64,000 nt of DNA, from positions 189,463 to 253,462 of the forward strand of contig JALTUV010000036.1 of NCBI GenBank assembly GCA_027049315.1. Reading direction: 5' to 3'. A program made the translations under genes and the position numbers. The notes under the pieces were generated by a model. The model worked only from the letters and a program-made list of their open reading frames with translations, was not told where the DNA came from and did not search any database. Positions 9,445 through 64,000 of the stretch are shown here, piece after piece (position 1 is the first letter of the stretch; every line of letters begins with the position of its first letter). Source of the stretch: Hydrogenothermaceae bacterium (GTDB lineage Bacteria > Aquificota > Aquificia > Aquificales > Hydrogenothermaceae).

Positions 9445-9741
9445 ATGAAAAAATCTGACCTTTTAAACAGGCTTTATGAGAGGTTTCCTGAATATCCAAA
9501 AACAGAAATCGCAAAGATTTTAAACGGGACATTTGATGCGATGATTGATGCTCTTGCCCGTGGAGAAAGAATAGAAATAAGAGGTCTTGGTTCTTTCAAG
9601 GTAAAGGAAAGGAAGTCTGAAAAGGCAAGAAATCCGAAAACAGGAGAAATAATACAACTAAAGAGTAAAAAAGTTGTACACTTTAAAATGGGCAAGAAAC
9701 TAAAAAGAATTCTGTTCAAAAAGGTAAAAGTCGAAGAATAA
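9445..9741 (+). CDS. HU/IHF-family DNA-binding protein
   Basis: 98 aa; the ...RGLGSFKVKERKSEKARNPKTGEIIQLKSKKVVHFK beta-arm motif is typical of HU/IHF. Confidence 0.85.
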   Translation: MKKSDLLNRLYERFPEYPKTEIAKILNGTFDAMIDALARGERIEIRGLGSFKVKERKSEKARNPKTGEIIQLKSKKVVHFKMGKKLKRILFKKVKVEE

Positions 9742-15576: not shown

Positions 15577-16209
15577 TTAAGCCATAAGTTTTCTTAATTC
15601 TTCGTCCCTAATACTGTCTAAATCAAACCTTTTTGTTTTTTTTCTGTGACATAGGATTATCTGTTTTAGAGACTCTTTAGATTTTTCAAGTATATCATTT
15701 ACTACTATAAAGTCATACTCCTTCCATGCAGGGATTTCACTCTTTGCAGTTTTAAGTCTTTTTCTTATCTCTTCTTCAGAATCTCCTCTTTCTTTCATCC
15801 TCTTTATAATTTCTTCAATACTTGGAGGAAGGATAAATATCGTAACAACATCTTTGAAATTCTTCTTCACCTGTCTCATTCCTTGAACATCAATGACAAG
15901 AATTAAATCTATTCCCCTTTTCAGCAGCTCAAAAACTTCCTTCTTTGGAGTGCCATAGTAGTTACCATGAACAACCGCATATTCTAAAAAAGCTCCTTCT
16001 TTTATCTTTCTTTCAAATTCCTCTTTTGTCAAAAAGTAGTAGTCTTTTCCGTCTTTCTCCCCAGGTCTTGGTTTTCTTGTGGTACAGGTTATAACTCTTT
16101 TCAAATTAGGAATCTCAGAAATCAAAAGATTTGAAAGTGTAGTCTTACCCCCTCCGGCAGGAGAGGACAGAATAAACAAGTCTCCTTTTAAAGTTTTATC
16201 TTCCAACAC
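15577..16209 (-). CDS. gmk: Guanylate kinase
   Basis: P-loop [11 protein letters not shown]; [17 protein letters not shown]; 210 aa. Confidence 0.9.
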
Positions 16210-17758
16210 CAGCCATCAGTAAGGAACTTATTGTTGTTGTTAAAGTCCATATTTGCGTTGGATAAATACCCAGAATTAGAACAATAACTGCGAGTACTCC
16301 TAATGACAGTTTTTCTACGAGGGAAACATTAATCTTTCCTTTAAAAGAAGGTTCATACATGTACATATTAGCAACAACCCTGAGATAGTAACCTGCAGAT
16401 ATTATACTCGTTACTACCAGGATAACAGCAAGCCACCAAACGTTATATCCAATAAGTGCAAGAAAAACGCCTAATTTACCGAAGAATCCCACTGTTGGAG
16501 GGATTCCAAGGAGAGAGAACATGAATATAAGCATGAGTAGCGCTGAAACAGGGTCTTTCTTTGCAAGTCCCTTGAAATCTTCTAACGTATTATTCCATCC
16601 TTCATTTTTCTCAAGCGATGCAAGGAGTAAAAATGCTCCTGCTCCCATGAATAAATAAACAATTGAGTAAAACGCTAAAGCTGCAAATCCCATTCCCGTT
16701 GGCGCTGCAAGTGCGGCCGTTATATAACCTGTATGTGCTATAGATGAATATGCAAGCATTCTTTTAACACTCTTCTGTCTAAGAGCGACAAGATTACCGA
16801 ATATCATCGATGCAGCTGCAAAAAGAGCCCATGCAAACCCCCAGCTTTCCGTAAGGGAAGGAAATGCCTCCACAACAACCCTGAGGATAATGGCATAGGT
16901 TGCAATTTTTGAGGGAACAGCTAAGAAAGCAGTTACAGGTGTTGGAGCACCTTCGTAAGCATCAGGTGCCCATTGATGAAATGGAACGGCTGAAGCCTTT
17001 AAGGCAAGCCCTACAAGCAGCAAAATAAGACCACCTATGAGACCAACATCAACAGTATTTGATGCTATAAGAGTCTGGGCTATTTCTCTGAAGTCAAATG
17101 TTCCTGTTCTCCCGTATAAAAGAGCTATAGCATAACTGACTATTGCTGTTCCTGTTCCACCTATAATAAGGTACTTATAGGCACCTTCTTTTGAACGGTA
17201 ATCCTTCCTGTAAAGCCCAATGAGAACATAAAGAGAGATAGACATAAGTTCAAGACCTACGTAGAAGGATATGAGGTTTGGTGATGAAACCATAATGAAC
17301 ATTCCAAAAAGTGAGAAAAGAATCAGGTAGTAGTACTCACCGTAATAGCTTCCCTTAGCCTCTGCATAGGGTCTTATATGTATAAGGACAAATATCGTTC
17401 CTATTATTAAAAAGAGTTTAAAAACAAGGGAAAAAAGGTCAACCACGTACAGACCGTAAAGTGTAACAAAGTTCTCCAGATAATTGTTGAGTATATAAGA
17501 GTAAAACGGGTTTGCCGATGCTTCTCTTAGTGTTATAGGTGAAAGGATAAGTTTAAGTATTCCTAAAATAATAACGAGTATATAAATACCGCTTATTAAC
17601 AGACCTGTGATTGAAAAAGCTGATATAACTCTTCTGTTTTTGGAGAACATTTCCAATATAAAAACAGCAAATGCCGTTAAGAGCAGTATAATCTCGGGTA
17701 TCAAAACATTGAAATTAGGCAATCCAAGACCGGATACCAGCTGTTCTATAACAGACAT
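16196..17758 (-). CDS. nuoN: NADH-quinone oxidoreductase subunit N
   Basis: 520 aa polytopic antiporter-like subunit; last gene of the nuo cluster. Confidence 0.9.
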
Positions 17759-17762
17759 TCCC

Positions 17763-19277
17763 TTAGCCTCCTAATAACCTTATCTTGAATAAGATAGCTT
17801 CTGTTGTTTTCTGAATCAGATTTATCCACCACGCAGGATAAATTCCTATAACGAACATAAATATCACAAGTGGTAAGAATGAGAGAAACTCTGAAGTTGA
17901 CATGTCCTTAAGCTGTTTCCACTTATGGAGTTTTTCCTCATCTATGAGCTCTTCTTCAAACATGGTTTTTCTGTAAAGCCAGAGTGTATAAGCGGCACCG
18001 ACGACAAGGCTAAGCCCGGCAAGTGTTGCTGTGAGAATACTTACCTTAAACGTTCCAAGAAGTGATAAGAACTCACCTACAAACCCAGAAAGTCCTGGTA
18101 AACCTACAGATGCCATTGCAGAAATCATAAATAGTGTTGCAAAAACAGGGACAAACTTTGCCATTCCCCCTAACTTTCTCATCTCATATGTGTGCGTTCT
18201 TTCATATATAAATCCTGCAGCAAGGAATAATGCAGCAGATGTAAGTCCGTGGGATATCATTGTTATAATTGCACCGTTAACACCGAAATCGTTAAGGGCA
18301 AATGTTCCAATTGTTACAAATCCCATATGTGAAACAGATGAGTAAGCTATAAGCCTCTTGATGTGTGTCTGAGCTATTGCCATCATGGCAGTGTATATAA
18401 TTGCAATAACACCAAGAACAAACATAACAGGAACAAAGTACTTGGATGCCTCAGGAAACCATGGAAGAGAGAATCTGACAAAGCCGTATGTTCCCATTTT
18501 AAGAAGAACAGCAGCAAGTATAACCGAACCTGCCGTTGGTGCCTGAACGTGAGCATCAGGAAGCCACGTATGGAATGGCCACATAGGAACTTTAATCGCA
18601 AATCCAAGAGCTAATAAAAGGAAGAAAATTGCCTCAATAGTAAATGGTAGTTGAGTGTTTACAAGACTAAAGTAACTGGTTGAAAGCTCTCCATTTTGGA
18701 AGTAGTTCGCAACATAGAGACCTATAACACCGATTAGCAAGAATAGTGAACCGAAGAATGTATATATAAAGAACTTCGTTGCTGCGTATATCCTTTCGGC
18801 ATATCCCCATACACCAATGATAAGGAACATAGGTATGAGGATAGCTTCCCAGAATATATAGAAAAATACTAAATCCCAAGCAACAAAAACCCCTAAAGAT
18901 CCTGCCTCAAGGACTAAAAAAGCAACAAAGTACTCCTTCACCCTCTTCTCTATATTAGTACTCCATATAAATGCAACCAGGAAAGAGAGAGCTGTAAGCC
19001 AGTAAAGTGTCAGACTTAGAGCATCAACACCAACCTCATATGAAACACCTAACCATGGAATCCATTCGTACTTTTCGTAGAACTGAATCTTATATGAGGA
19101 TGAATCATAGGCAAGAAGCATATATGATGAAATAACAAAAACAATACCAGAAACAAGAATACTGACGGGCTTTGCAAATCTCTCATTTAAAAACATGAGA
19201 ATAGCAGCTGCTATAAGCGGTAGCAGTATCGTTATAGATATCCACGGAATATCAGCTCTCACAAATTCTACAGACAT
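17763..19277 (-). CDS. nuoM: NADH-quinone oxidoreductase subunit M
   Basis: 504 aa antiporter-like subunit ([14 protein letters not shown] motif). Confidence 0.9.
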
Positions 19278-19292
19278 TCTCTACCCCCTACT

Positions 19293-21236
19293 TCAACTTA
19301 AGAATAAAAAGAGTGATAAAAACACCAGAATACCGACAGCCATCTGTGCAAGGTAGGCACTTATCCTTCCTGTTTGAGCAAGTCTCATAAAGTCTCCAAA
19401 GCTCATAGAAACCTTTCCTGAACCGTTAACAACCCCATCTATAACAAACTTATCTCCAGCTTTCCACATAAACCTTGATAACTTGTAGTAACCATAGGCA
19501 AATATTGCATAGTATATATGGTCAAAGTACCATCTGTTGTAGAAGAGTAAGTATATAGGCTTAAACGTATTTCCAACCCATACAGGGTCGATAACTCTCC
19601 TCTGATACATCAGATAAGCCACAAATATACCACCTAAAGCCATAAATAGGGCTAAAAGACCAAGGGGTGAGGTAAGGGAATGTATAACAAAATGTAAAAC
19701 ATCAGGTATATGGACGTGATGAGACCTTTCAAGTCCATTCTCTACAATAATCCTTGTCTCTTCAGATAGAAACTTCATCTGAGATGGATCCAAAGAAGGT
19801 CTTAAGAAGTTCATAAAGAAATCTCTGAAGAAACCTAATATAAGAGCACCAGCAGCAAGAACGATAAGCGGGATTGTCATGTTAGGTGGTGATTCATGAA
19901 CATGAGCCTTAAGATGAGGGTCTAATCTATCCCCATTCTCAAATGCCAGGAAGTACAATCTGAAGATATAGAAGGCAGTTAGTCCTGCTCCACTCCAGAG
20001 GAAAACCCATATGACCCAGTTAATCTCATAAGCTGCTTCTATAATAGGGTCCTTACTGAAAAATCCTGAGAATGGTGGAATTCCTGCAAGTGCAAGAGCA
20101 CCTATAAGGAATGTAATTGCCGTAATAGGCATATATTTTCTTAGTTGACCCATCTTCTGAACGTCTAATAAGTGATGAAGAGCAACCAGCACGCTACCTG
20201 CTGCAAGGAACAGTAATGCTTTAAATACTGCGTGAGATGCAAGGTGGAACATTCCATCCTTAAATAGACCAAGTCCCTCAGCTGCAAACATATAACCTAA
20301 CTGAGAAAGTGTTGAGTATGCAATAATTCTCTTTATATCGTTTTGAACAAGCCCCATTGTTGCTGCAATAAACGCAGACATCGTTCCTACATACAGGACT
20401 GTATCAAGTGCAATTTCAGAAGATGCAAAAACAGGCATTATTCTTGCCACCATATAAACACCGGCAGCAACCATCGTTGCAGCGTGGATAAGTGCAGAAA
20501 CAGGAGTAGGACCTTCCATTGCATTTGGAAGCCATATATGTAACGGTATCTGAGCAGATTTTCCTACCGCACCACCAAATAGCAGAAGTGCTATAGCAGT
20601 CATTGTCCAGAATCCGGCTTCTGGAATTTTGTTAAAGATATCTAAATAGTCAAGTGTACCAAACGTCACAAATGTTAGAAGTACACCCAGAAGGAATAAC
20701 CAGTCTCCTACTCTGTTTACAACAAAGGCTTCCAGAGCTGCAACAGATGCAGACTTTTTATAGTGCCAGAAACCAATTAAGAGATAGGAAGCAAGACCAA
20801 CTCCTTCCCATCCGAAGAACAGCTGTACTAAATTGTCTGCAAGTGTCAGCATAAGCATCATAAACACAAAGAGAGATAGATAGGCAAAGAACCTTGGATA
20901 AGATGGGTCACCTTTCATATAACCTGTTGCAAAGATGAATATAAATGTAGATACAACCGTAACGACACAGGTCATCAATGCAGAGAGAGGATCCCATAGA
21001 ATACTAACAGATATCTCATAATTTCCAAGGGGCATCCATGTGAAAAGCTTTAAATCGTAATAACCCCCTGTCTTAGAAACTTCGTAAAACCCGTAAACGG
21101 AGAAAACAGCTGATATGGCAACTCCGATAACTGCTATTACACCTGAAAGAGGCTCCCTTAAAAGCTTATAACCAAATAAACCTATTATAATAAATGCAAT
21201 TAGTGGTGAAAACGGTATAACCCAGAGATATTCCAT
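19293..21236 (-). CDS. nuoL: NADH-quinone oxidoreductase subunit L
   Basis: 647 aa with a long C-terminal extension, as in NuoL. Confidence 0.9.
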   Translation of the reverse strand: MEYLWVIPFSPLIAFIIIGLFGYKLLREPLSGVIAVIGVAISAVFSVYGFYEVSKTGGYYDLKLFTWMPLGNYEISVSILWDPLSALMTCVVTVVSTFIFIFATGYMKGDPSYPRFFAYLSLFVFMMLMLTLADNLVQLFFGWEGVGLASYLLIGFWHYKKSASVAALEAFVVNRVGDWLFLLGVLLTFVTFGTLDYLDIFNKIPEAGFWTMTAIALLLFGGAVGKSAQIPLHIWLPNAMEGPTPVSALIHAATMVAAGVYMVARIMPVFASSEIALDTVLYVGTMSAFIAATMGLVQNDIKRIIAYSTLSQLGYMFAAEGLGLFKDGMFHLASHAVFKALLFLAAGSVLVALHHLLDVQKMGQLRKYMPITAITFLIGALALAGIPPFSGFFSKDPIIEAAYEINWVIWVFLWSGAGLTAFYIFRLYFLAFENGDRLDPHLKAHVHESPPNMTIPLIVLAAGALILGFFRDFFMNFLRPSLDPSQMKFLSEETRIIVENGLERSHHVHIPDVLHFVIHSLTSPLGLLALFMALGGIFVAYLMYQRRVIDPVWVGNTFKPIYLLFYNRWYFDHIYYAIFAYGYYKLSRFMWKAGDKFVIDGVVNGSGKVSMSFGDFMRLAQTGRISAYLAQMAVGILVFLSLFLFLS

Positions 21237-21248
21237 CTCTCTCCTCTT

Positions 21249-21554
21249 TTACAGTTTTAGTTCAGAAAGTTTTTCTACATCTACGTCTTTTCTCAGTCTG
21301 TATATAGCCATAACAAGACCAAGACCAACTGCAGCCTCAGCAGCTGCAATTGTAAGGATGAAGAAAACGAACACCTGCCCTGCAACATCGTTTAGTTTCA
21401 TATCGTAGGCAACAAAGGCTATATTCACAGCATTCAACATGAGCTCAGTGGATATCAAAACAGCTATTATATTTTTTCTGACAGTTACACCAATAAGACC
21501 TAATACCATTAATAATCCGCTTAACGCTATATAGTACTCATAGGGAATGCTCAT
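21249..21554 (-). CDS. nuoK: NADH-quinone oxidoreductase subunit K
   Basis: 101 aa, 3 TM. Confidence 0.9.
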   Translation of the reverse strand: MSIPYEYYIALSGLLMVLGLIGVTVRKNIIAVLISTELMLNAVNIAFVAYDMKLNDVAGQVFVFFILTIAAAEAAVGLGLVMAIYRLRKDVDVEKLSELKL

Positions 21555-22075
21555 TTTCCTTCCTCCATAACCTGTTCTTTCCTTCCAAGGAGTATAGCAC
21601 CAACCATGGCAACAAGAAGAATTAGAGATGCTACCTCAAACGGGAATAAGTACTTTGTAAAGAGCATAGATGAAACTGCTTTTATATTTCCAACTTCTCC
21701 TATAACCTCAGGTGAAAATATTCCTGTGGCAGAAGACCAAGCTCCATAAATTGACACATACGCAAGCTCCATAAAGATAACAAAACCGACTGGAATTGAT
21801 ATCAGCATATACTTAGGGTCAACAGCTTGTCCTTTGTACTGGGGAACTGTTGATATAACCAAAACATAAAAAACAACAATTGCCACGGCATATATTAGGA
21901 TTTGTAATGCACCAATTAATTCAGCACCTAAGTTAAAAAATAGACCGGATACTGCTATTAGAGTTGATATTAAAGATAAAACACTGTAAACAATATTTTT
22001 TGAAAAAACAACACCAAATGCAGATAGAACTGCAAGGGCTGAGAAACTCCAGAATGCTATCGCGTGTAAGTCCAT
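21551..22075 (-). CDS. nuoJ: NADH-quinone oxidoreductase subunit J
   Basis: 174 aa membrane subunit; overlaps nuoK and nuoI. Confidence 0.85.
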   Translation of the reverse strand: MDLHAIAFWSFSALAVLSAFGVVFSKNIVYSVLSLISTLIAVSGLFFNLGAELIGALQILIYAVAIVVFYVLVISTVPQYKGQAVDPKYMLISIPVGFVIFMELAYVSIYGAWSSATGIFSPEVIGEVGNIKAVSSMLFTKYLFPFEVASLILLVAMVGAILLGRKEQVMEEGK

Positions 22076-22668
22076 CTAATCTGCCCCCATAGTTTTTCTC
22101 TAACCTCATCATCTATCCATATTCTATCCGGCTCGTTATACCTTCTTCTATCAAATGAAACACCCCTTTCACACATATCATCCATATGAATAACACACTC
22201 AGACCTTTTATCTGTTGCACTTTCAAACTCGTCTGTCATTATAATACAGTCAACCGGACAGGCATCTACACAGAGTCCACAGTATAAACAGTTTAAAAGG
22301 TTCATGTCAAATCTTGTAACTCTCTTTTTTCCATTTGGAAGCTGAACAGCCTCTATTTTAAAAAGAGTTGGGATTGGACATGCCTGTTGACACATATAAC
22401 AGGCAACACATCTACTTTCACCTTCGTTTATCTCCATGAATTTTTCCAGAACCGTGAAAGATGGTGGTTCTTTACCATCCTTTACTCTGTGGGCATGTGT
22501 TCCTCTGAATCTTTTGGGAGGTGTAAGCTTCTCATATGGATATCTCGTGGTTATAGTTTTTCTTAGAAGATTTTTAAATGTAGTTTTTAGTCCATTCAAA
22601 AAATCTAAAAAGAAAATCTTTTCTGCTGTATTAAGTTTAGGTCTTTCTAAGTATTTGACTTTGACCAT
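22057..22668 (-). CDS. nuoI: NADH-quinone oxidoreductase subunit I (2x[4Fe-4S] ferredoxin)
   Basis: CVACYMCQQACP and CLYCGLCVDACP cluster motifs. Confidence 0.9.
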   Translation of the reverse strand: MVKVKYLERPKLNTAEKIFFLDFLNGLKTTFKNLLRKTITTRYPYEKLTPPKRFRGTHAHRVKDGKEPPSFTVLEKFMEINEGESRCVACYMCQQACPIPTLFKIEAVQLPNGKKRVTRFDMNLLNCLYCGLCVDACPVDCIIMTDEFESATDKRSECVIHMDDMCERGVSFDRRRYNEPDRIWIDDEVREKLWGQIRWTYTR

Positions 22669-22669
22669 C

Positions 22670-23680
22670 TTACCCCTTCAGAATGACAATTCCTGCCGTT
22701 ATAAAAATGTTAAGGAACGTTAAAGGTAACATAACTTTCCAGGCTATCTCTGTAATCTGGTCAACCCTGTACCTTGGAAGAGTCCAGTGAACCCAGAGCA
22801 AGAACATAAACACGAGGAAAAGCTTTGTTAAGAACCATATATATGGAGATAGAGCTCCAAAGATATGTGGACCATTCCATCCACCAAAGAAAAGTATAAC
22901 TGCAAGAGCACTCAGAACAAATGTTGCTATATACCACTCAGCCAGCGGGAAGAGACCAAACTTCATACCTGAGTACTCTGTGTTGTAACCTGCAACCAGC
23001 TCAGCTTCTGCTTCCTGAACATCAAAAGGTGTTCTCCCTGTTTCTGCAAGAACAGAGAAAAGATAAACAACAAATGCAAGTGGCTGATACCATATAAAAG
23101 CACCGAAGAAACCCTGCTGTGCTTCTACAATTTCCCTTAATGAGAAACTGCCAGCAAGCATTATAGGACCAACAAGTGCAAAACCAAGGGCGACTTCATA
23201 TCCTATTAAAACAGCAGCCTTTCTAAGACCACCTATCATTGGATACTTACTGTTTGAAGCCCAACCTGCAAATATAACACCGTATATACTTATACTTCCA
23301 AAGGCGAGGGCAAGAATAAGAGCAACATTGACGTCAGATATATAAGGTTTTATCTCAAGTCCAAACAGTTTTATTGGTTCTCCAAATGGAATAACGGCAA
23401 GTATCATAATAGCAGGAACAAAAGCCATTAAAGATGCAAGATAAAAAAGCTTTTTATCAACAAAGTTTGGAACTATATCTTCCTTTGTTAAAACCTTCAG
23501 TGCATCAGCTATTGGTTGTAAGAGTCCATGGAATCCAACATGGAGGGGACCAGGTCTCTGTTGAACGTGGCCTGCAAATTTTCTCTCAACAAGGGTTAAA
23601 TATGCGGCAAGCAGGAACATCCCTATTATAAAAATCAGAGATTTTATCACTATACCAATGGTTACAGCCAAAAGTTCCAT
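22670..23680 (-). CDS. nuoH: NADH-quinone oxidoreductase subunit H
   Basis: 336 aa, 8 TM, ND1 family. Confidence 0.9.
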   Translation of the reverse strand: MELLAVTIGIVIKSLIFIIGMFLLAAYLTLVERKFAGHVQQRPGPLHVGFHGLLQPIADALKVLTKEDIVPNFVDKKLFYLASLMAFVPAIMILAVIPFGEPIKLFGLEIKPYISDVNVALILALAFGSISIYGVIFAGWASNSKYPMIGGLRKAAVLIGYEVALGFALVGPIMLAGSFSLREIVEAQQGFFGAFIWYQPLAFVVYLFSVLAETGRTPFDVQEAEAELVAGYNTEYSGMKFGLFPLAEWYIATFVLSALAVILFFGGWNGPHIFGALSPYIWFLTKLFLVFMFLLWVHWTLPRYRVDQITEIAWKVMLPLTFLNIFITAGIVILKG

Positions 23681-23733
23681 AATTCCCTCATTATAGCTGG
23701 TTTAGTAAATCTTTATATTACCATACAATGATT

Positions 23734-23753
23734 AAAAATCAAACATTGTTTTA
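23734..23753. promoter_or_regulatory. Conserved palindromic motif AAAAATCAAACAtTGTTTTA (copy 1 of 3) at the nuoCD/nuoH junction
   Basis: Core AAACA-N-TGTTT with an AAAATC 5' flank and a TA 3' flank. Near-identical copies at 26459-26477 and 62133-62153. Confidence 0.4.
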
Positions 23754-25505
23754 TCTATCAGTTTCTCCAACGACAGGGTCTAAACTGCCAAGGAGAACAA
23801 CAGCATCTGCAACAGTTCTTCCCTTTATAAGTTCAGGAAATATCTGGAGGTTGTAAAAAGCACCTGAGCGAATCCTGAGTCTGTATGGTCTCCCCTCTCC
23901 TTTGCTCACTATATAAAAGCCTAATTCACCCCTTGGATTTTCTCCCGATGAGTAGATCTCTCCTTCAGGAGCCTGCTCACCGTAAATTCTGAGATTAAAG
24001 TCTTTTACCATAGCCTCTATCGAGTTGAAAGTCTCTTCGAGGGTAGGAAGTACATATGGGTTTTCTGTTGCAAGGTATTTATCTTCCTTCAGCTCTTCTA
24101 ATTTTTCCACACATTGTTTAACAATGCCGAGGCTCTGCCTCATCTCTTCCATTCTAACTAAATACCTGTCGTAGCAATCACCTACCGTACCTAAAGGAAC
24201 TTCAAAATCAACCTTATCGTAAGCATCTGTAGGGTCTAACATCCTTATATCATAAGGAACACCTGAACCTCTGGCGACAACACCGGTTATTCCATACTGA
24301 TAAACATCTTCTTCCTTTATAATCCCAAGACCTACATTCCTTCTAAGCCAGACTCTATTTTTAGTGAGTATATCTTCATACTCCTTTATTCTTGAGGGAA
24401 AATCTTTTATAAAATGTCTTATGACATCAAGTGCCCCTTCCGGTAGATCCATTCTGACACCGCCTATTCTCATATAAGTAGAGTTAAGCCTTATACCTGC
24501 TATTCCCTCTATAATGTCCATAATCTTTTCCCTTTCTCTAAATGTGTATAGAAAGATTGTTAAAGCTCCAAGGTCGAGGGCGAATGTTCCGAGCCATAGA
24601 AGATGTGAGTTTATCCTCTGAAGTTCACACAGCATTGTTCTAATCCATTTTGCCTTCTCAGGAACTTCAACTCCCAAGAGTTTTTCAACTGCGTTTACAT
24701 AGGCAACATTACTACATATAGCAGATATGTAATCCATCCTATCTGTATATGGAATAACCTGTGTGTATGTTATATCCTCTGAGAGTTTCTCAATTCCTCT
24801 GTGAAGCTGCCCTAAGATTATATCGCAGTTTTTAATAACCTCTCCTTCAAGGTCAAACAAAAACCATATAGTCCCGTGGGTTCCGGGATGAAGAGGTCCC
24901 CAGTTTAGAACTATTTGAGCCTTTTTTTCAGGCATTCTTGCCTTCTGTGTTTCTTCTAAATCCTGAAGTGTCGGTATAGCTGTATGATAAGGGTCGTAAT
25001 CATGACTTGGAATTGAACCTTCAGGCTCATTTAAAGACGGAAGATACGTGTCCTTTATTCCCTCTTTTGGAAAGTCTTTCCTCAATGGAAAGTACGGATA
25101 AGACTCCCACATAAACATCCTTACAAGATTCTTATGTCCTTCAAACTTGATACCGAACATATCGTATGCTTCTCTTTCAGCCCATTTAGCCCCTTTCCAC
25201 AGGTCAGTTACCGTTGGCAGTGTATCATCCTCAGCCCAGACTTTTATTCCAATTCGCTCCTTGTAAACAGGAGAGTATAGAATATAAACTCCTTGAAATC
25301 TTGGTCTATGAAGAGGATAATCAACACAGGTCATATCTATAAACATTTCAAACGAGAAATCCTCTGAATCTCTGAGAAACTTGAGGAAATCTTTTAGTAT
25401 AGATTTGCTTACTTCGATGAATACATTATCTTTGTAAAACTGTATATTTATAGAGGGAAAAATCTCTTTTAATTTTTCTGCTTTTTCTTTTTTAATCCAA
25501 GGCAA
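23751..25505 (-). CDS. nuoCD: NADH-quinone oxidoreductase fused subunit C/D
   Basis: 584 aa; an N-terminal roughly 150 aa NuoC-like region and a C-terminal NuoD (49-kDa subunit, LHRGIEKL...). Confidence 0.9.
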   Translation of the reverse strand: MPWIKKEKAEKLKEIFPSINIQFYKDNVFIEVSKSILKDFLKFLRDSEDFSFEMFIDMTCVDYPLHRPRFQGVYILYSPVYKERIGIKVWAEDDTLPTVTDLWKGAKWAEREAYDMFGIKFEGHKNLVRMFMWESYPYFPLRKDFPKEGIKDTYLPSLNEPEGSIPSHDYDPYHTAIPTLQDLEETQKARMPEKKAQIVLNWGPLHPGTHGTIWFLFDLEGEVIKNCDIILGQLHRGIEKLSEDITYTQVIPYTDRMDYISAICSNVAYVNAVEKLLGVEVPEKAKWIRTMLCELQRINSHLLWLGTFALDLGALTIFLYTFREREKIMDIIEGIAGIRLNSTYMRIGGVRMDLPEGALDVIRHFIKDFPSRIKEYEDILTKNRVWLRRNVGLGIIKEEDVYQYGITGVVARGSGVPYDIRMLDPTDAYDKVDFEVPLGTVGDCYDRYLVRMEEMRQSLGIVKQCVEKLEELKEDKYLATENPYVLPTLEETFNSIEAMVKDFNLRIYGEQAPEGEIYSSGENPRGELGFYIVSKGEGRPYRLRIRSGAFYNLQIFPELIKGRTVADAVVLLGSLDPVVGETDR

Positions 25506-25509
25506 AATA

Positions 25510-25541
25510 TTACCCCTTTGCAGAAATTAAGAAAGGGGTAA
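25510..25541 (-). other. Intercistronic stem-loop between nuoB and nuoCD (10-bp perfect stem, 12-nt loop)
   Basis: TTACCCCTTT-gcagaaattaag-AAAGGGGTAA; overlapping GGGG-taaaaa-CCCC at 25535-25548. Confidence 0.4.
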
Positions 25542-25563
25542 AAACCCCAGAAGGATTCAAATT

Positions 25564-26106
25564 TTAACCTTTTATAGGAAATGAAGCCGTAGGAGTTCTC
25601 ACCGGTATTTCTTTAAGTTCTCTCCCTTCCTGTTTAGCTTTTATCTTCTTCTGCAGTTGAAGTATTCCCCACAGCAGTGCCTGTGGTGTAGGAGGGCAAC
25701 CTGGGACGTAAACGTCTACCGGAATTATTCTATCCACACCTTGAAGTGTAGAGTATGTAGGAAATGGTCCTCCACCTGAAGAACAACCACCCATTGATAT
25801 AACCCACTTAGGGTCAGGCATCTGGTCATATATGAGTTTTAGCATTGGAGCAACTTTATTTACAACTGTTCCGGCAACGATAAGCACATCAGACTGTCTT
25901 GGAGAACCTCTGAATATTATTCCCATTCTATCTGTATCAAATCTTGAAGCTGCAGTATGCATCATCTCTATAGCACAACATGCAAGCCCTATAGAAACAG
26001 GCCAGAGAGAGTTTCTCCTTCCCCAGCTTAAAACCTCTTCAACTGTTGTAAGTATTATTCCATTATTTCCACCTATTATTGCCATCTTAACGCTCCTTTT
26101 TTCCAA
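25564..26106 (-). CDS. nuoB: NADH-quinone oxidoreductase subunit B
   Basis: [10 protein letters not shown]...[10 protein letters not shown]...PGCPP Fe-S motifs. The true start is probably the internal MAIIGG. Confidence 0.9.
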
Positions 26107-26447
26107 GCATATACGTATCCTAATATTAATATAAGCAGGAATAAGAACATTTCCGTAACAATAAATACTGCATTTATCTTTGCTATGTATTTAAATACAT
26201 ACGCCCATGGAAAAACAAAAGCAGCTTCAAGGTCAAATAGAACCAGCAAAAGACCAAGTAGATAATATTTCTGGTCTATCGATGTCCATGTTGTCTTGTC
26301 ATATAGAGGAACACCACACTCGTAAGGATAACCTTCAAGTGGGTCTGGTATTTTAGGGGCTATGAGTCTGTTTAGAATTAAAAGCCCTATACCAAGAGCA
26401 GTGCTTATAATGAAGAATATAAGTATTGCAAAATACCCTTCACTCAT
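26076..26447 (-). CDS. nuoA: NADH-quinone oxidoreductase subunit A
   Basis: 123 aa, 3 TM; YECG...FDLE...FPWA conserved NuoA residues. Confidence 0.85.
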
Positions 26448-26458
26448 TTCCGCACCTC

Positions 26459-26477
26459 AAAATCAAACAATGTTTTA
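26459..26477. promoter_or_regulatory. Conserved palindromic motif AAAATCAAACAaTGTTTTA (copy 2 of 3), 12 bp upstream of the nuoA start
   Basis: Same 19-bp motif as at 23734 and 62133. Confidence 0.4.
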
Positions 26478-26837
26478 CTAAGATAACCTAATCTTTGAGT
26501 AATTTCAAGTGTAGAGGGATAGTACCTAAATACATCCAAAATAGAACATGAGTTAAGAAGAAGAGAGAAGGACCAGGATAAAATAAAATATATAGTTTAA
26601 ATTAGTGCCAAAAATTTGAAAGATTCAGGAAAAGAAAATATATAGATAGATTGAAAAGGCTGAGAAGGAAGACAAACGACTATAGTAATATAAACACATT
26701 CAAATATGCATTGACTATGGTTTTACACCTAATTGATTTTTTTATTGATTTTTTAACCTAATACACAAATATTGACGATAATAATATATGTCATATAATT
26801 ATGTATATTTTTATGGATGAAAAGGAGGTCCATAGAA

Positions 26838-26921
26838 ATGGGATTGGCAGTTAGCGAGGCACTATTTGTGGGCTTCCTTATAACTGTGGGAAGTTTTATT
26901 CTTTCTATGATTGTTGATTAA
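26838..26921 (+). CDS. Candidate 27-aa hydrophobic small protein ([27 protein letters not shown])
   Basis: ATG preceded by AGGAGG at -9, inside a 470-bp AT-rich intergenic region. Its stop overlaps the convergent carB stop (TTAA). A single predicted TM helix. Confidence 0.25.
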
Positions 26922-28600
26922 TTTTCACTGTCTCTAAAATAAGTTATAGAGCCGTCTTCAGATAACCTTCCAGATAGACTTTCGTAGCTTGAGTAATAGT
27001 ACGGAGTATAAGCCTCAAACTCTGCGGCACAGGTATCAACAACTTTAAAACTTGATTTAATTCTCCGTTCTCTAATCTTATCCTCGGTTGTCTTTAACAA
27101 TCTTGCGAGTTCTTTATCGGAAAATCCCATCTGTTTGGCTATTTCAAGTTCTTCATCTGAGATAGTTCCTAATGTTTTATCGGATAGTTTTTGTTCAAAA
27201 TCTACAATCTCTTTTATTTCATTTAGAAACCATCTGTCTATATGTGATAAACTGTGAATCTCATCTACTGACCATCCTCTCCTAAATCCTTCTGCTATGT
27301 ACCACAGCCTATCGGCATTAGGTTTTATTATCTTTTCTCTTATCGTTTCTTCATCGTATTTTTCCAGACCTATGTACAGTCCATATCTACCGAGCTCAAG
27401 ACTACGAACAGCCTTCTGGATGCTCTCTTTAAATGTCCTTCCTATAGCCATTACCTCACCAACAGATTTCATCATTGTTGTGAGTGTTGAGTCGGTTTCC
27501 GGAAATTTAGCAAAGTCAAACCTTGGAATTTTTGTAACAATATAGTCTATTGTAGGTTCAAAAGATGCGGGAGTTTCTTTCGTTATATCATTACTCAGTT
27601 CATCGAGAGTGTATCCAACAGCAAGCTTCGCTGCAATTTTTGCTATTGGAAATCCTGTAGCTTTCGATGCTAAAGCTGAAGAACGTGAGACTCTTGGATT
27701 CATCTCTATAACGTAGAATGTTCCGTCTTCTGGATTTTGGGCAAACTGAACATTAGAGCCACCTGTTTCAATCCCGATTTCTCTTAAAACAGCTATTGAG
27801 TAATTCCTGAGTATCTGATACTCTCTGTCTGTTAACGTCATAGCAGGTGCTACTGTTATACTATCTCCCGTATGAATTCCCATAGGGTCTAAATTTTCTA
27901 TTGAACACACAATTACACAGTTGTCATTTTTATCTCTCATAACTTCCATCTCGAACTCTTTCCATCCTATAACGGACTCTTCAAGTAAAACTTCATGTAT
28001 TGGAGATGCTTCAAGTCCAGCTTTTACCTTTGTATGAAACTCGTCTTGATTATAAGCTATACTTCCCCCTGTACCACCTAATGTAAATGATGGTCTTATT
28101 ATCACAGGAAAACCTATCCAATCTATAACCTCAAAAGCCTCAGCCATTGAACGAACTACAGCACTTTTGGGCATTAGAAGTCCGATTCTTTCCATTGCTT
28201 CTTTAAAAAGCTCCCTATCCTCAGCTTTTTTTATTGCCTCATAGGATGCACCAATCATCTTTACGTTGTACTTATCAAGTATTCCTTTTTCATAAAGGTC
28301 AACAGCAAGATTAAGAGCAGTTTGTCCTCCTAATGTTGGAAGTAATGCGTCCGGTCGTTCTTTTTCTATTATTTTTTCAATAACAGGTGTTATAAGTGGT
28401 TCTATATATGTTTTATCTGCAATTTCTGGGTCTGTCATAATTGTAGCCGGATTTGAATTTACAAGAACAACCTCATAGCCCTCTTCTTTTAAAGCTTTTG
28501 CTCCCTGAGTTCCAGAATAGTCAAACTCAGCTGCTTGCCCAATAACAATGGGTCCAGAACCTATAAGCAAGATTCTCTGGATATCCGTTCTTTTTGGCAT
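26918..28600 (-). CDS. carB: Carbamoyl-phosphate synthase large subunit, N-terminal half (stand-alone CarB1)
   Basis: [32 protein letters not shown] plus the first ATP-grasp and oligomerisation domains. 560 aa instead of about 1070; the C-terminal half is not in the window. Confidence 0.9.
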
Positions 28601-28635
28601 TAATTACCTCTCTGATAGGTTTTTAATATTTTAAT

Positions 28636-29070
28636 TTAGGTTTTTTCCTCTATCCACTTATATATAGAACTTTTCCCGTCTTTTAATATACGTGGTTCTT
28701 CTTTTGAAACCTCTAAGAATTTTTTAATAATCTCTTTTTTCCTCTCAGCTTCGTATTTTCTTGTGAATCTATCACTGTACAGCTCAAGTAGTATTTCAGC
28801 TTCTTTTCTTTTTGATATTAACAATTCCTTTAAGTCTTCAAGAAGTATTTTAGCTTTTTTATGGGTTACAGTCAGATGATAAACCCTCTTTCTTCTCTTT
28901 ATAGAGCCGCCGTAGATTTCCTTTATAATTTTTAACGGTTCTTCGCTACTTGCTTTGACCACAACTTTTATATAAACGGAATTAGGAGATGTTGGAACCT
29001 TAACAACTGTTATCTTTCCGGAAGAATCAATCATTCCGGCAATATAGGCTCTAATATAGTCCCTATTCAT
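28636..29070 (-). CDS. LAGLIDADG-like homing-endonuclease-fold protein with a degenerate motif
   Basis: 144 aa; the N-terminal YIAGMIDSSGKI sits in the LAGLIDADG position, followed by the family pattern ...IKEIYGGSI...VYHLTV...LLEDLKELL. The second motif acid is replaced by Ser. Confidence 0.5.
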   Translation of the reverse strand: MNRDYIRAYIAGMIDSSGKITVVKVPTSPNSVYIKVVVKASSEEPLKIIKEIYGGSIKRRKRVYHLTVTHKKAKILLEDLKELLISKRKEAEILLELYSDRFTRKYEAERKKEIIKKFLEVSKEEPRILKDGKSSIYKWIEEKT

Positions 29071-45248: not shown

Positions 45249-45327
45249 TGGCGGAGCCGACGGGATTCGAACCCGCGACCTCCGGCGTGACAGGCCGGCG
45301 TTCTGGGCCAAGCTGAACTACGGCTCC
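45249..45327 (-). tRNA. tRNA-Asp (GTC), CCA encoded
   Basis: Cloverleaf resolved manually; anticodon loop CTGTCAC; T-loop TTCGAAT. Confidence 0.85.
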
Positions 45328-45334
45328 GCTTGGA

Positions 45335-45407
45335 TGGGCGGTATAGGATTCGAACCTATGACCCCCTCCTTGTAAGGGAGGTGCTCTGGCCAGCTGAGCT
45401 AACCGCC
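45335..45407 (-). tRNA. tRNA-Val (TAC), CCA not encoded
   Basis: GGGCGGTTAGCTCAGCTGG...; anticodon loop CTTACAA; acceptor GGGCGGT/ACCGCCC. Confidence 0.85.
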
Positions 45408-45505
45408 CATATTCAATTAGACTAATATATTATAACACCAACATATATTTGTCAATACTGTACATCGGTTGGGTAATTACTAATTTAAATTTAAGAGAAT
45501 TAAAA

Positions 45506-45582
45506 TGGTTGCGGGGGAGGGATTTGAACCCTCGACCTCCGGGTTATGAGCCCGGCGAGCTACCAGGCTGCTCCACCCCGCG
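45506..45582 (-). tRNA. Initiator tRNA-fMet (CAT), CCA encoded
   Basis: C1xA72 mismatch and three consecutive G:C pairs (GGG/CCC) at the base of the anticodon stem; loop CTCATAA. Confidence 0.8.
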
Positions 45583-45624
45583 CAAGGTGTATCAAAATAT
45601 ATTCCAGTTAAAAACCTATTCAAG

Positions 45625-45701
<77 letters not shown>

Positions 45702-45706
45702 TAAAA

Positions 45707-45779
45707 TCGGAGTGGCAGGACTTGAACCTGCGACCCCGTGCTCCCAAGGCACGTGCTCTGCCACCTGAGCTACACTCCG
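45707..45779 (-). tRNA. tRNA-Pro (TGG), CCA not encoded
   Basis: CGGAGTGTAGCTCAGGTGG...; anticodon loop CTTGGGA. Confidence 0.85.
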
Positions 45780-45977
45780 ATAGAGCAGGAAAATAATATA
45801 TCACTAAAACTTATAAATTGCAATACTTGGATATTTGGTTTGCAGGTCTAATAAACAAAAAATTCTGGTAAATAAACAACGAAGCCATTACCCTTTTTAT
45901 TAAACTAACATTCTTTCTTATTTTTAAAGCTTCTCTCTTTTTTCTTATCTACGTTTTACAGTTTGATATAAGGCTTA

Positions 45978-46313
45978 CTATTCCTTTTCTAATTCCAAAG
46001 ATTTTTCAGTTATTTCAACAATCTCTTTAAGAGACTGTCTTGCCACAATTGTAGGCGGAGATGGAAGTTCTAAATCTTTTATCTGATTATAGACTTGGAT
46101 AGCTTTTTCATCAGCTTTTTTAAGCCTTTGTTTTTGTTCTTCTGTTAGCTGGTTTTTGTGTTTTCCTAAATCTTTCCTTTCAAGAAATGCTTGAACTAAT
46201 TCAATATCTATTGCAGTAGGTAAAGGAGTAGTAAAATCTTCAACATCTAAATACTTAATTTCTACTTCATAATTTCTTAAAAATTCTTCTAACTTCTTTT
46301 TTAAGTTTTTCAT
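45978..46313 (-). CDS. Hypothetical protein (island-borne)
   Basis: 111 aa, charged and coiled-coil-like; no recognisable family. Confidence 0.45.
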   Translation of the reverse strand: MKNLKKKLEEFLRNYEVEIKYLDVEDFTTPLPTAIDIELVQAFLERKDLGKHKNQLTEEQKQRLKKADEKAIQVYNQIKDLELPSPPTIVARQSLKEIVEITEKSLELEKE

Positions 46314-46408
46314 TTAAATAAAGGTTATTTTTAGTGCTTAGATTTTAGTTTTGTCTCTTGTATTTATTCTATTGTTATTTAAATAAGATAAAAAGAAGGA
46401 ATGAATAA

Positions 46409-46519
46409 CTATGAGTGTTTTTCTTTCTTTTGAAGATAAATGCCAAAAGCAACCATTAAGAGACCAAATATAATCACACTACCAGCGACAACTAAAAGAT
46501 TTAAAAGCTCATCGCTCAT
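46409..46519 (-). CDS. Candidate 36-aa single-TM peptide (MSDELLNLLVVAGSVIIFGLLMVAFGIYLQKKEKHS)
   Basis: ATG with AGGAA at -9. Its start overlaps the stop of a second upstream hydrophobic reading frame (...MGVILSSIVGTDNER) in an ATGAGCGATGA arrangement. Confidence 0.3.
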   Translation of the reverse strand: MSDELLNLLVVAGSVIIFGLLMVAFGIYLQKKEKHS

Positions 46520-46693
46520 TATCTGTTCCTACAATAGATGACAAAATAACACCCATAAAGAATAATATAACTGCAATAACAGCTGAAGCAATAGAACTAG
46601 AAATATTGAAGTCAGCCAAGGCAACATAATTATTATTTTTGGGAATGGAATAAATCTGATTCTATTTATATAACCATTCAAATTAAAAAACTT

Positions 46694-48412: not shown

Positions 48413-48485
48413 ATCATCCTCTTTAATTGAATAATAGAATAAAACGTATTATATTCTTTTAAAGAACTTTAAGCTTTGTTAAACA

Positions 48486-54776: not shown

Positions 54777-54780
54777 TACA

Positions 54781-56214: not shown

Positions 56215-56260
56215 AGTTTTGCAATAAGAGTATATTTAAAGTTCGCCCAACCTTTTCTTT

Positions 56261-56614
56261 TGGTGGAGGCGGGGGGAATCGAACCCCCGTCCGAGAACAG
56301 CCCTCGCACGGGCTTTCTACAGGCTTAGCCTGTGATTAAGGTTTCGCCTGCAGCGTCCCCACAGGCAGGGCTACTGCAGGCTATCCCCGTAAGAGTTTCG
56401 GGAAGTGCCTCAGGGGAGCTTGGCACTCCCCTATCCCGTGTATCTGTCGCCCTTCCTGAGCCCACGGGCAAACTCAGGAGGACGTCGCTGCGCTAATTAG
56501 GCAGCGAGAGCGAGTTCACGTTCGGGAATTGTTTGCGCTTGGTTTTTTACGGAGTTCTCCTTCTCCGGCCTGCTTACCCGGCTCGGCTGTTCCCGTCGAA
56601 CCCGCATCGCCCCC
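56261..56614 (-). ncRNA. ssrA: tmRNA (ssrA), 354 nt
   Basis: 5' GGGGGCGATGCGGGTTCGACGGG...; 3' tRNA-like end GGTTCGATTCCCCCCGCCTCCACCA (G3:U pair in the acceptor). The internal tag reading frame ends ...PERELALAA-TAA. Confidence 0.8.
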
Positions 56615-62132: not shown

Positions 62133-62153
62133 AAAAAATCAAACACTGTTTTA
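62133..62153. promoter_or_regulatory. Conserved palindromic motif AAAAAATCAAACAcTGTTTTA (copy 3 of 3), between icd and the monomeric IDH gene
   Basis: Same 19-bp motif as at 23734 and 26459. Confidence 0.4.
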
Positions 62154-62224
62154 TTTTTAAAAAAATTTTTGTATAATAACTTGCCAGAAAATCCAAAAAA
62201 TAAACTTAAAGGAGGAGTGTGCTT

Positions 62225-64000
62225 ATGGCAAAAGCCAGAATAATATGGACAAAAGTAGACGAGGCTCCACAGCTTGCAAGTTATTCCCTTTTACCTATCA
62301 TGAGGGCATTTACAAAAGATGCAGATGTTGAAATTGAAGTAAGGGATATTTCCCTTGCTGGAAGGATACTTGCCCAGTTCCCAGACCTTCTCTCAGAAGA
62401 TAAAAGGGTACCTGATGACCTTGCATATCTTGGGGAACTTGTGTGGAAACCTGAAGCAAACATAATGAAACTACCTAACATATCAGCATCTTTACCACAG
62501 TTAAAAGAAGCTATAAAGGAACTTCAGGAACAGGGATATCCATTACCGGACTACCCTGACAATCCTCAAACTGAAGAGGAAAAAGATATAAAGGCAAGAT
62601 ACGACAGGTGTGTAGGTTCTGTTGTTAACCCGGTTTTAAGACAGGGGAACTCAGACAGAAGACTTGCAGAGGTTGTTAAGGAGTACGCAAGAAAGCATCC
62701 TCATAAACTAAAAGAGGTGTCTCCTCACTCAAAATCCCATGTAGCTCATATGAAAACAGGTGATTTTTACGAGCATGAAAAATCTGTAATCATAGATAAA
62801 GACACAAAAATCAAATACATATTCGAGGATGAAAATGGAAACCAGACTGTTCTAAAAGAGGTTGAGGTTGAAAGGGGAGACGTTGTAGATGGAACGTTTA
62901 TGAGCAGAAAGAAACTCAGAAAGTATTTTGAAGAAGTTATTGAAACTGCAAAAGAAGAAGATATTCTCTTCTCTCTTCACGTAAAAGCAACAATGATGAG
63001 GGTTTCAGACCCGGTTATATTCGGGGATGCTATAAGGGTTTACTATGCAAAGTTATTCGAAAGACATGGAGATTTACTTGAGAAGTTAGGATGGAAGCCT
63101 GAATCGGGACTTCAGGAACTTGAAAACAGATTAGACCAGCTTTCTGAAGAAGAAAGAAACGCTATAAAGAAAACGATAGAAGAGATATACAAAGAAAGAC
63201 CAAGAATGTACATGGTTGATTCTGATAAGGGAATTACTAACCTCCACATGCCTAACGACGTTATCATTGATGCATCTGTTCCTGCTGTGATTAAAAACGG
63301 TCTTCAGGGATGGGGTCCCGACGGTGAAACTGAAGATGTTGTTCTTTCAATTCCTGACAGGTCTTATGCAAGAATGTACAAAGAGATTGTTGAAGATATA
63401 AAAGCAAGGGGACAGTTTGACCCAACAAAAATAGGAACTGTTCAAAACGTTGGACTTATGGCAATGAAAGCTGAAGAATACGGTTCCCACGACAAAACGT
63501 TCTTCCCACCTGCAGATGGAAAGATGAAAGTTGTTGACGAAGAAGGAAACGTTCTCATAGAACACTGTGTAGAAGAAGGAGATATTTGGAGAAGCTGTAT
63601 CACAAAAGATATAGCTATAAGAGACTGGGTAAAGCTCGCTGTAAACAGAGCTAAAGATTCAGGTTTTCCTATTGTATTCTGGCTCGATGAGTACAGGGCA
63701 CATGATAAAAATCTCATTGAGAAAGTAAAAGAGGAGCTTCCTAAGTACGACCTTGAAGGAATAGACTGGTACATAAAAGCTCCAGACGATGCTATGAAGT
63801 TCACCCTTGCAAGATTTAGAAATGGAGAAAACACTATCTCCGTGACAGGAAACGTTTTAAGGGACTACCTGACAGACCTATTCCCTATTATTGAAGTTGG
63901 TACATCTGCAAGGTCTCTATCTATTGTTCCTGAGATTGCCGGTGGTGGACTTTTTGAAACAGGTGCAGGTGGTTCAGCTCCAAGACACGTTGAGCAGTTC
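62225..64000 (+). CDS. idh: Monomeric-type isocitrate dehydrogenase (about 740-aa family), 5' part; continues past the window end
   Basis: [25 protein letters not shown]...[21 protein letters not shown]...[23 protein letters not shown] is collinear with the Azotobacter/Corynebacterium monomeric ICDH. Confidence 0.85.

Follow-up and report, generated by a model that had tools for sequence, protein, structure and literature searches.

The locus and its three copies of a short dyad

To our knowledge, little is known about how members of the Aquificota regulate the reductive tricarboxylic acid (rTCA) cycle. The DNA considered here is a stretch of 64,000 nucleotides (hereafter the window; positions 189,463 to 253,462 of contig JALTUV010000036.1 in assembly GCA_027049315.1) from a member of the Hydrogenothermaceae, a family of hot-vent bacteria, and the element of interest is a short palindromic motif found in front of genes for respiratory complex I and for isocitrate dehydrogenase (IDH).

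The complex I genes nuoA-N occupy positions 16196..26447 on the minus strand, as identified with Pfam and from the gene calls on an identical contig (L121), which belongs to an assembled environmental metagenome. They comprise nuoA (26076-26447; Pfam), nuoB (25564-26106), a fused nuoCD (23751-25505; Pfam), nuoH (22670-23680; Pfam) and nuoI-N (16196-22668), and the set lacks nuoEFG. On the plus strand, a gene for a 422 aa protein of the Iso_dh family (60863-62131; Pfam) is followed by one for a monomeric NADP-dependent IDH (62225..64000; PF03971, E = 1.4e-294), which runs off the end of the window. The product of the latter is 100% identical to protein P0001 of a metagenome-assembled genome (MAG) and about 90% identical to proteins of Persephonella sp.

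The initial annotation of this DNA had described three near-identical copies of the motif, differing only at the central base, and had placed them upstream of nuoA, inside the nuo operon and upstream of the monomeric IDH gene. Both statements held. An exact pattern search of the 64-kb window found AAATCAAACANTGTTTTA at 23736-23753, 26460-26477 and 62136-62153, with T, A and C, respectively, at the central position and no other difference, and the Pfam assignments put the genes as described, with nuo on the minus strand. The expected number of exact copies was 0.00, the motif never being seen in 100 dinucleotide-preserving shuffles, and when up to 3 mismatches were allowed the window yielded, beyond the three known copies, only reverse-strand self-matches of two of them.

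The conserved block is about 20 bp long (AAAATCAAACANTGTTTTAY) and forms an imperfect 8-1-8 dyad, the arms of which are unequal at one position (C versus A). Written as TCAAACA-N-TGTTTTA, the arms agree at 6 of 7 positions, and all four bases are found at N across the sites examined below; when degenerate sites are included the half-site can be summarized as TGTT(T/A)(T/G)A. The flanks of different copies are unrelated, and there are neither conserved flanking sequences nor target duplications.

Two of the copies, which read TAAAACANTGTTTGATTT in the direction of the genes (minus strand), belong to the nuo genes. The copy at the nuoA promoter (26459..26477) reads TAAAACATTGTTTGATTTT on the minus strand, or TAAAACATTGTTTGATTT in the gene direction, starting 2 nt past a predicted -10 box and ending 12 nt before the nuoA ATG, and hence it spans the predicted transcription start. 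The sigma70-type promoter concerned, TTGAAA-17-TATCTT (26480..26508, minus strand), is a consensus prediction from a promoter scan, and its TTGAAA/TTGATT and TAT blocks are conserved in an alignment of nuoA promoters. The copy at the nuoCD/nuoH junction (23734..23753) reads TAAAACAATGTTTGATTTTT on the minus strand; it opens with the three bases of the nuoCD stop codon and ends 55 nt before the nuoH ATG. The TTGATT arm of this copy (23742-23737) is 16 bp upstream of TAATAT (23715..23720, minus strand), which is preceded by TGG (TGGTAATAT). This TAATAT, starting 26 bp from the centre of the dyad, is the predicted -10 box of an internal nuoH-N promoter; it fell under the threshold of the simple promoter scan and is proposed from the spacing common to 17 other sites.

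The third copy (62133..62153, plus strand; AAAAATCAAACACTGTTTTAT) lies in the monomeric IDH promoter and is flipped relative to most IDH promoters elsewhere. The 20-bp block begins 2 nt past the stop codon of the 422 aa Iso_dh-family gene, and the 18-bp core ends 71 nt before the IDH ATG (62225). A predicted -10 box, TATAAT (62172..62177, plus strand), starts 26 bp from the centre of the dyad (62146), and the ATG follows 47 nt after it.

Conservation at orthologous promoters

Orthologous promoters were also chosen independently of the motif, by identifying IDH and NuoCD homologs in named species, taking their contigs and inspecting the promoters, about 10 in all. Within the Hydrogenothermaceae, the site was present with 0-3 mismatches in the IDH, nuoA and nuoH orthologous promoters. 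The IDH promoter of Venenivibrio has an exact site, that of Hydrogenothermus marinus has TATAACGCTGTTTGATTT (2 mismatches) and that of Sulfurihydrogenibium yellowstonense carries AAATCAAACAATGTTATA twice, at a distance of 33 bp; no site was found in the IDH promoter of Desulfurobacterium atlanticum. The nuoA promoters of H. marinus, Persephonella KM09-Lau-8 and Persephonella hydrogeniphila carry the site just after the -10 box with 2-3 mismatches, and the nuoA promoter of a further locus (L032) has the arrangement seen in the window, with the site after the -10 box. In Sulfurihydrogenibium subterraneum a degenerate copy is instead upstream of the nuoA -35 box.

No site was found in the nuo promoter of an Aquificaceae MAG. 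At the operator position after the nuoA -10 box of this MAG there is another small dyad, TATAAACGCTTTAAA (L252 9040-9080), which could be a diverged counterpart of the motif.

The junction copy is likewise conserved. In Persephonella KM09-Lau-8 the nuoCD/nuoH junction carries a site, and in S. subterraneum one precedes a nuoH that stands on its own, with a kinase gene on the opposite strand between it and nuoCD. In H. marinus, nuoABCD stands alone with no nuoH after it. As the two halves of nuo are apart in both H. marinus and S. subterraneum, they are independent transcription units in the Hydrogenothermaceae, and the sites at the junctions and before the free-standing nuoH thus mark a separate nuoH-N promoter. 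Though the promoters themselves are predicted, this points to nuoABCD and nuoH-N as units with promoters of their own yet under common regulation.

Distribution and the genes beside the site

A scan of genomes, with one genome per species, gave at least 120 matches, and 10 of the 120 listed were in contigs from Hydrogenothermaceae or "Aquificales", all ten being intergenic. Since by our estimate the Aquificota make up far below 1% of genomes, this represents a strong enrichment. A scan of metagenomes with a version of the motif in which 19 bases were specified gave 120 further loci; about 45 were Aquificales-like and intergenic, and many of the others were chance matches within coding sequences from unrelated organisms. 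In public genomes and metagenomes the motif was found in the genera Persephonella, Hydrogenothermus, Venenivibrio and Sulfurihydrogenibium. Matches in other phyla were single, and the nine inspected closely were mostly within open reading frames (ORFs). Use of the motif outside the family was rejected, as the matches in Campylobacterota, Desulfurellales and the other examined cases were mostly in ORFs or had no neighbouring gene start.

In Hydrogenothermaceae, all sites precede a gene start by 9-160 nt, and relative to the predicted transcription start they fall between about -50 and +15. In 383 kb of Hydrogenothermaceae DNA a relaxed core gave 35 perfect and 13 one-mismatch matches, compared with 0.0 and 4.6, respectively, in shuffled sequence. 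Nearly all of these matches were the promoter sites, leaving approximately one extra site per several hundred kb.

The gene families next to the site were assigned from locus contexts and Pfam, and the flanks have diverged between lineages. The monomeric IDH gene is the most frequent (the window and at least 12 other lineages), followed by nuoA (6 lineages), the gene for the beta subunit of ATP-citrate lyase (aclB, 6 loci), that for a 4Fe-4S ferredoxin of 73-79 aa divergent from a hemW-like radical-SAM gene (6 loci), the gene for aconitase B (acnB, 4 loci), nuoH (3 lineages), the quinolinate synthase gene nadA (3 loci) and the acetyl-CoA synthetase gene acs (2 loci). At one acs locus the gene is divergent from an 83 aa gene, read by eye as that for a small transporter subunit. 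Single loci were found for a dimeric-type IDH, for a nickel superoxide dismutase (Ni-SOD, sodN) and for a por/for operon that opens with a CO_dh-family gene followed by POR_N (2-oxoacid:ferredoxin oxidoreductase). Hence, the target set is functionally coherent and is made up of rTCA enzymes, ferredoxin, complex I, NadA and Ni-SOD.

Some individual loci have additional features. At two loci with the hemW-like gene (L144 and L163) the centre of the dyad and a TG-extended TAAATT box are 26 bp apart, and the ATG of this gene is 6 nt past the box with no Shine-Dalgarno sequence, so the gene may be leaderless there. At one acnB locus (L136 11915-12424) an ORF that, read by eye from its N-terminal sequence, is bacterioferritin-like ends right before the site; this is compatible with an iron theme in the regulon, and does not show one.

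Position of the site relative to predicted promoters

The distance from the centre of the dyad to the start of a TATAAT-like hexamer was 26-28 bp in 8 of 9 IDH, all 4 acnB and all 3 aclB promoters, and the same spacing was seen at nuoH, the dimeric IDH and two hemW promoters. With the centre 26-28 bp before the -10 box, the TTGATT arm occupies the -35 position (16-18 bp before TATAAT). The predicted centre is at approximately -39 at IDH, acnB, aclB and nuoH. The IDH sites are in forward orientation in the window, in locus L135 and in S. yellowstonense and in reverse orientation in at least eight others, and the distance from the centre to the -10 box is kept on flipping, at 26 bp in the window and L135 and 27-28 bp in the IDH sites of opposite orientation.

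Other arrangements also occur. In the ferredoxin promoters the site abuts a separate TTGCAA-17-TATACT promoter. The predicted centre is at about +4 at nuoA and at about +14, past the predicted -10 box, at nadA, and in one locus (L185) it is only 17 bp before the -10 box. In the IDH promoter of S. yellowstonense the proximal copy lies over the spacer and the -10 box of TTGACA-18-TATATT.

The tandem copies in S. yellowstonense (L246 7535-7585) are separated by 33 bp, equivalent to three helical turns, and an acs promoter from the Aquificales (L109 6585-6760) carries four copies in about 170 bp, one of them exact and three degenerate. The presence of several operators at one promoter suggests cooperative binding or looping.

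A probable repressor operator

The initial annotation had proposed that the motif is the operator of a dimeric transcription factor and that its copies reflect a shared regulator of energy and redox genes. The dyad with its free centre, the occurrence in either orientation and the conservation at orthologous promoters all support the first proposal, and the second gains from a set of targets that proved wider and more coherent than the window alone had revealed, encompassing the rTCA cycle, ferredoxin, complex I, nadA and Ni-SOD. The two checks it had named also came out in its favour: the motif behaves as a phylogenetic footprint, being present at IDH, nuoA and nuoH promoters picked independently of it, and it is not a generic AT-rich repeat, the relaxed-core matches in 383 kb of family DNA being nearly all promoter sites. 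We consider it probable that the motif is the operator of a dimeric, sequence-specific transcription factor conserved across the Hydrogenothermaceae, most likely a repressor, that governs the rTCA cycle and ferredoxin-linked electron flow. What the sequences establish is that the motif exists, is conserved, lies close to promoters in either orientation and has the targets listed above; binding by a protein, the sign of its effect and, from consensus, the promoter positions are inferred.

Such a factor would co-regulate the rTCA enzymes ATP-citrate lyase, aconitase B, the isocitrate dehydrogenases, 2-oxoacid:ferredoxin oxidoreductase and acetyl-CoA synthetase, and would act also on the small 4Fe-4S ferredoxin, on nuoABCD and nuoH-N of the NuoEFG-less complex I, on quinolinate synthase and on Ni-SOD. 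In most promoters the TGTTTGATT arm would double as the -35 hexamer TTGATT, 16-18 bp before TATAAT, whereas at nuoA and nadA the site would cover the start site or the early transcribed region and at the S. yellowstonense IDH gene the spacer and -10 box. In each class of promoter, a bound dimer would be expected to exclude or block RNA polymerase at what appear to be strong, near-consensus promoters. A free centre, use of either orientation, tandem copies, a range from about -50 to +15 and near-consensus promoters fit a dimeric repressor, and the sites at about +4 in nuoA, about +14 in nadA and over the spacer and -10 box in S. yellowstonense are incompatible with activation at those promoters.

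Several points weigh against this interpretation. The promoter elements throughout are consensus predictions, and two of the three window promoters fell under the threshold of a simple scanner. The arms are consistently asymmetric (TCAAACA versus TAAAACA/TATAACA), which may partly reflect the overlapping -35 role rather than protein contacts. As degenerate sites exist, the near all-or-none spectrum of mismatches is mostly an artefact of the exact patterns used in the search, which the approximately 10 independently chosen promoters correct only in part. No helix-turn-helix regulator was recognized, either by eye in 87 ORF clusters within 4 kb of the sites or in the gene and Pfam tables of 10 contigs. 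Finally, the class of sites fixed at about -39 would fit a class II-type activator equally well, which leaves room for an activating or dual role.

Two types of neighbouring gene were considered as the source of the regulator and rejected. ArsR-like genes are found divergent from nuoA in P. hydrogeniphila and near the IDH gene in H. marinus; these include the arsenite-binding motif ELCVCQL and sit with arsB and arsC, and are therefore arsenic regulators. An HU/IHF-like gene is present in the window (9445-9741), and here the motif is palindromic and fails the IHF consensus.

Alternatives to repression

The alternative that survives best retains the same operator and makes the factor an activator or a dual regulator, which at about -39 would replace or assist recognition of the -35 region, in the manner of HsrA of Helicobacter pylori at nuoA and other housekeeping promoters, and would repress only where it binds downstream of the -10 box, as at nuoA and nadA. 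In its favour, about 20 promoters share the spacing of 26-28 bp, which survives even flipping of the site (window IDH and L135), where the -35 position is left with only TTTATT; the ferredoxin sites abut a separate TTGCAA -35 box; and HsrA provides a precedent for a factor sitting at the -35 position of nuoA and metabolic promoters (PMC5253667). However, most -10 boxes match TATAAT perfectly and TTGATT would serve reasonably as a -35 box, so the promoters look intrinsically strong and not activator-dependent. The sites at nuoA, nadA, L185 and the proximal one at the S. yellowstonense IDH gene are, moreover, in positions from which activation would not be possible, and repression of nuoA combined with activation of nuoH would be odd within one complex. 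We thus regard an activator or dual factor as unlikely, and repression by a dimer remains the preferred explanation.

It is far less likely still that the motif works without a dedicated factor, as a composite core-promoter module in which an A-rich UP-like element is joined to a TTGATT -35 box and which RNA polymerase reads directly at highly expressed metabolic genes. Though most sites have TTGATT 16-18 bp ahead of a TATAAT-like box, and A-tracts precede and T-tracts follow the motif, such a module would not account for sites past the -10 box at nuoA (five lineages) and nadA (three) or over the -10 box in S. yellowstonense, for flipped sites that hold the distance from their centre, or for tandem copies. 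Neither a strict dyad about a free central base nor conservation of the distal arm far beyond that of UP elements would be expected of it.

An element acting in RNA, whether a leader hairpin, an attenuator, a terminator or a small RNA target, is highly improbable. The motif is directly 5' of the Shine-Dalgarno sequence at nuoA, hemW and nadA and two of the window copies follow a stop codon, but fold energies are no better than those of shuffled sequence (z -0.63 to +0.60), the A-U stem is merely 4-5 bp in a thermophilic host and the sites match no Rfam family. The site also occurs in either orientation relative to the gene, and many sites are upstream of the predicted -10 box and would not be transcribed. 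With folding z-scores of about 0 and no terminator-like sites, the initial annotation was also right to discount a terminator on account of the weak stem. A dispersed repeat with no regulatory role (a remnant of a repetitive extragenic palindrome or miniature inverted-repeat transposable element, a DNA-uptake sequence or a recombination site) can be dismissed with near certainty, despite the identity of the copies within one genome, given the low density in the several hundred kb covered, the lack of conserved flanks or target duplications, the lack of sites inside genes in the Hydrogenothermaceae and the retention of the site at orthologous promoters across genera with diverged flanks.

Comparison with known operators

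In its general design the motif resembles palindromic repressor operators of the TetR, Fur and LacI types, which are dyads of 15-20 bp with an uncontacted centre that lie over the -35 box, -10 box or start of strong sigma70 promoters, are occasionally found as tandem copies and can serve divergent genes from one site. It differs in that its arms are consistently unequal, and it matches no operator that we identified.

Members of the Fur family bind 7-1-7 boxes such as TGATAATnATTATCA. The layout and the outer T...A are shared with the motif, and many of the targets are Fe-S proteins (AcnB, ferredoxin, Nuo, NadA and HemW) with a superoxide dismutase gene in addition, whereas IDH, ATP-citrate lyase and acetyl-CoA synthetase are not iron proteins. 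By inspection the sequence itself does not fit a Fur box, each arm agreeing at no more than about 3 of 7 bases, and the shared layout counts as a lead. CcpC, a LysR family regulator in Bacillus subtilis, is a citrate-responsive repressor of citZ-icd-mdh and citB that recognizes ATAA-N7-TTAT. Like the factor proposed here, it is dedicated to the part of the cycle formed by aconitase and isocitrate dehydrogenase and acts via promoter dyads, but its motif is different, its regulon is much smaller and the cycle concerned is oxidative rather than reductive.

The initial annotation had listed Rex, CRP/FNR and Rrf2 among candidate regulators, and the motif fits the consensus of neither Rex nor CRP/FNR. 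Relative to the Rex operator (TTGTGAA-N4-TTCACAA) the half-sites are reversed (ACA-N-TGT) and there is a single central base in place of even spacing. For CRP/FNR (TGTGA-N6-TCACA or TTGAT-N4-ATCAA) only one ATCAA/TTGAT half is present; a second half is missing at both N4 and N6, and conservation does not extend into the flanks. The IHF site WATCAANNNNTTR is asymmetric; AATCAAACANTGT fits 7 of its 9 specified positions and fails at TTR, and the second conserved arm would not be explained.

There is also a formal resemblance to the operator of PsrA, a TetR family regulator of Pseudomonas that recognizes C/GAAAC-N2-4-GTTTG/C, for example TTCAAAC-N4-GTTTGAA (PMC13104628). CAAAC-ANT-GTTTG/T formally fits this pattern, which is itself short and permissive; this is a resemblance only and, like the Fur-type layout, a lead. 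PsrA is also a dimeric repressor that blocks access of polymerase and has metabolic targets. However, the motif has a fixed N3 spacing and other flanks, and where PsrA controls fatty-acid degradation and rpoS, the targets here are the rTCA cycle, ferredoxin and complex I. No TetR gene turned up near the sites, though no search was aimed at PsrA-like genes.

HsrA (HP1043) of Helicobacter pylori is a functional analogue, in that it acts at the -35 position of nuoA and of central energy-metabolism promoters with good -10 boxes (PMC5253667) in a lineage with few regulators. Its box, TTTAAG-N5-TTTAAG, is a strand-specific direct repeat from which it activates, whereas the motif is an inverted repeat used in both orientations and also past the -10 box, and the HsrA box was therefore rejected as a match.

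Significance

No published description of the motif or of an rTCA regulon in the Aquificota was found, the coverage of the literature being incomplete. What is new is the regulon and the operator; the mechanism, an operator overlapping a promoter, is textbook. It is plausible, though we would stop a little short of calling it probable, that the motif is the recognition site of an undescribed master regulator that couples the rTCA cycle to ferredoxin supply, complex I, NAD synthesis and superoxide defence. If so, rTCA-based autotrophy in the Aquificota would have its first defined cis-regulatory code, and the regulator may belong to an unexpected family or may sense a cycle intermediate, the redox state, O2 or iron. 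The motif makes the regulation of rTCA-based autotrophy in the Hydrogenothermaceae directly testable, and it supplies an exact 20-bp bait (AAAAATCAAACANTGTTTTAT) for fishing out the regulator and finding its signal, as well as well-defined promoter and operator parts for thermophile genetics.

Other features of the window

In the 440 bp upstream of nuoA, the best sigma70-like promoter is TTGACG-16-TATAAT on the plus strand (26772-26799). Behind it lies a 27-codon hydrophobic ORF with an AGGAGG ribosome-binding site (26838-26921), which may be a gene for a small membrane protein that escaped annotation and is divergent from nuoA. At 26918-29070, a stand-alone 560 aa gene encodes the N-terminal half of the large subunit of carbamoyl-phosphate synthase, and a 144 aa ORF just upstream on the same strand has a borderline match to LAGLIDADG endonucleases (E = 1.5e-4, at the Pfam cutoff).

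A low-GC region at 45249-56614 (25-30% versus about 36%) is bounded by five tRNA genes (45249-45780, minus strand) and a transfer-messenger RNA gene (56261-56614, minus strand), the latter an Rfam match that is absent from the ARAGORN list. It includes genes for a KAP-family NTPase, a type I restriction-modification system, an OLD-family AAA/TOPRIM nuclease and hsdM, and the putative hsdR-like part and the hsdS-like part each seem to be split into two ORFs. This region looks like an integrated defence island.

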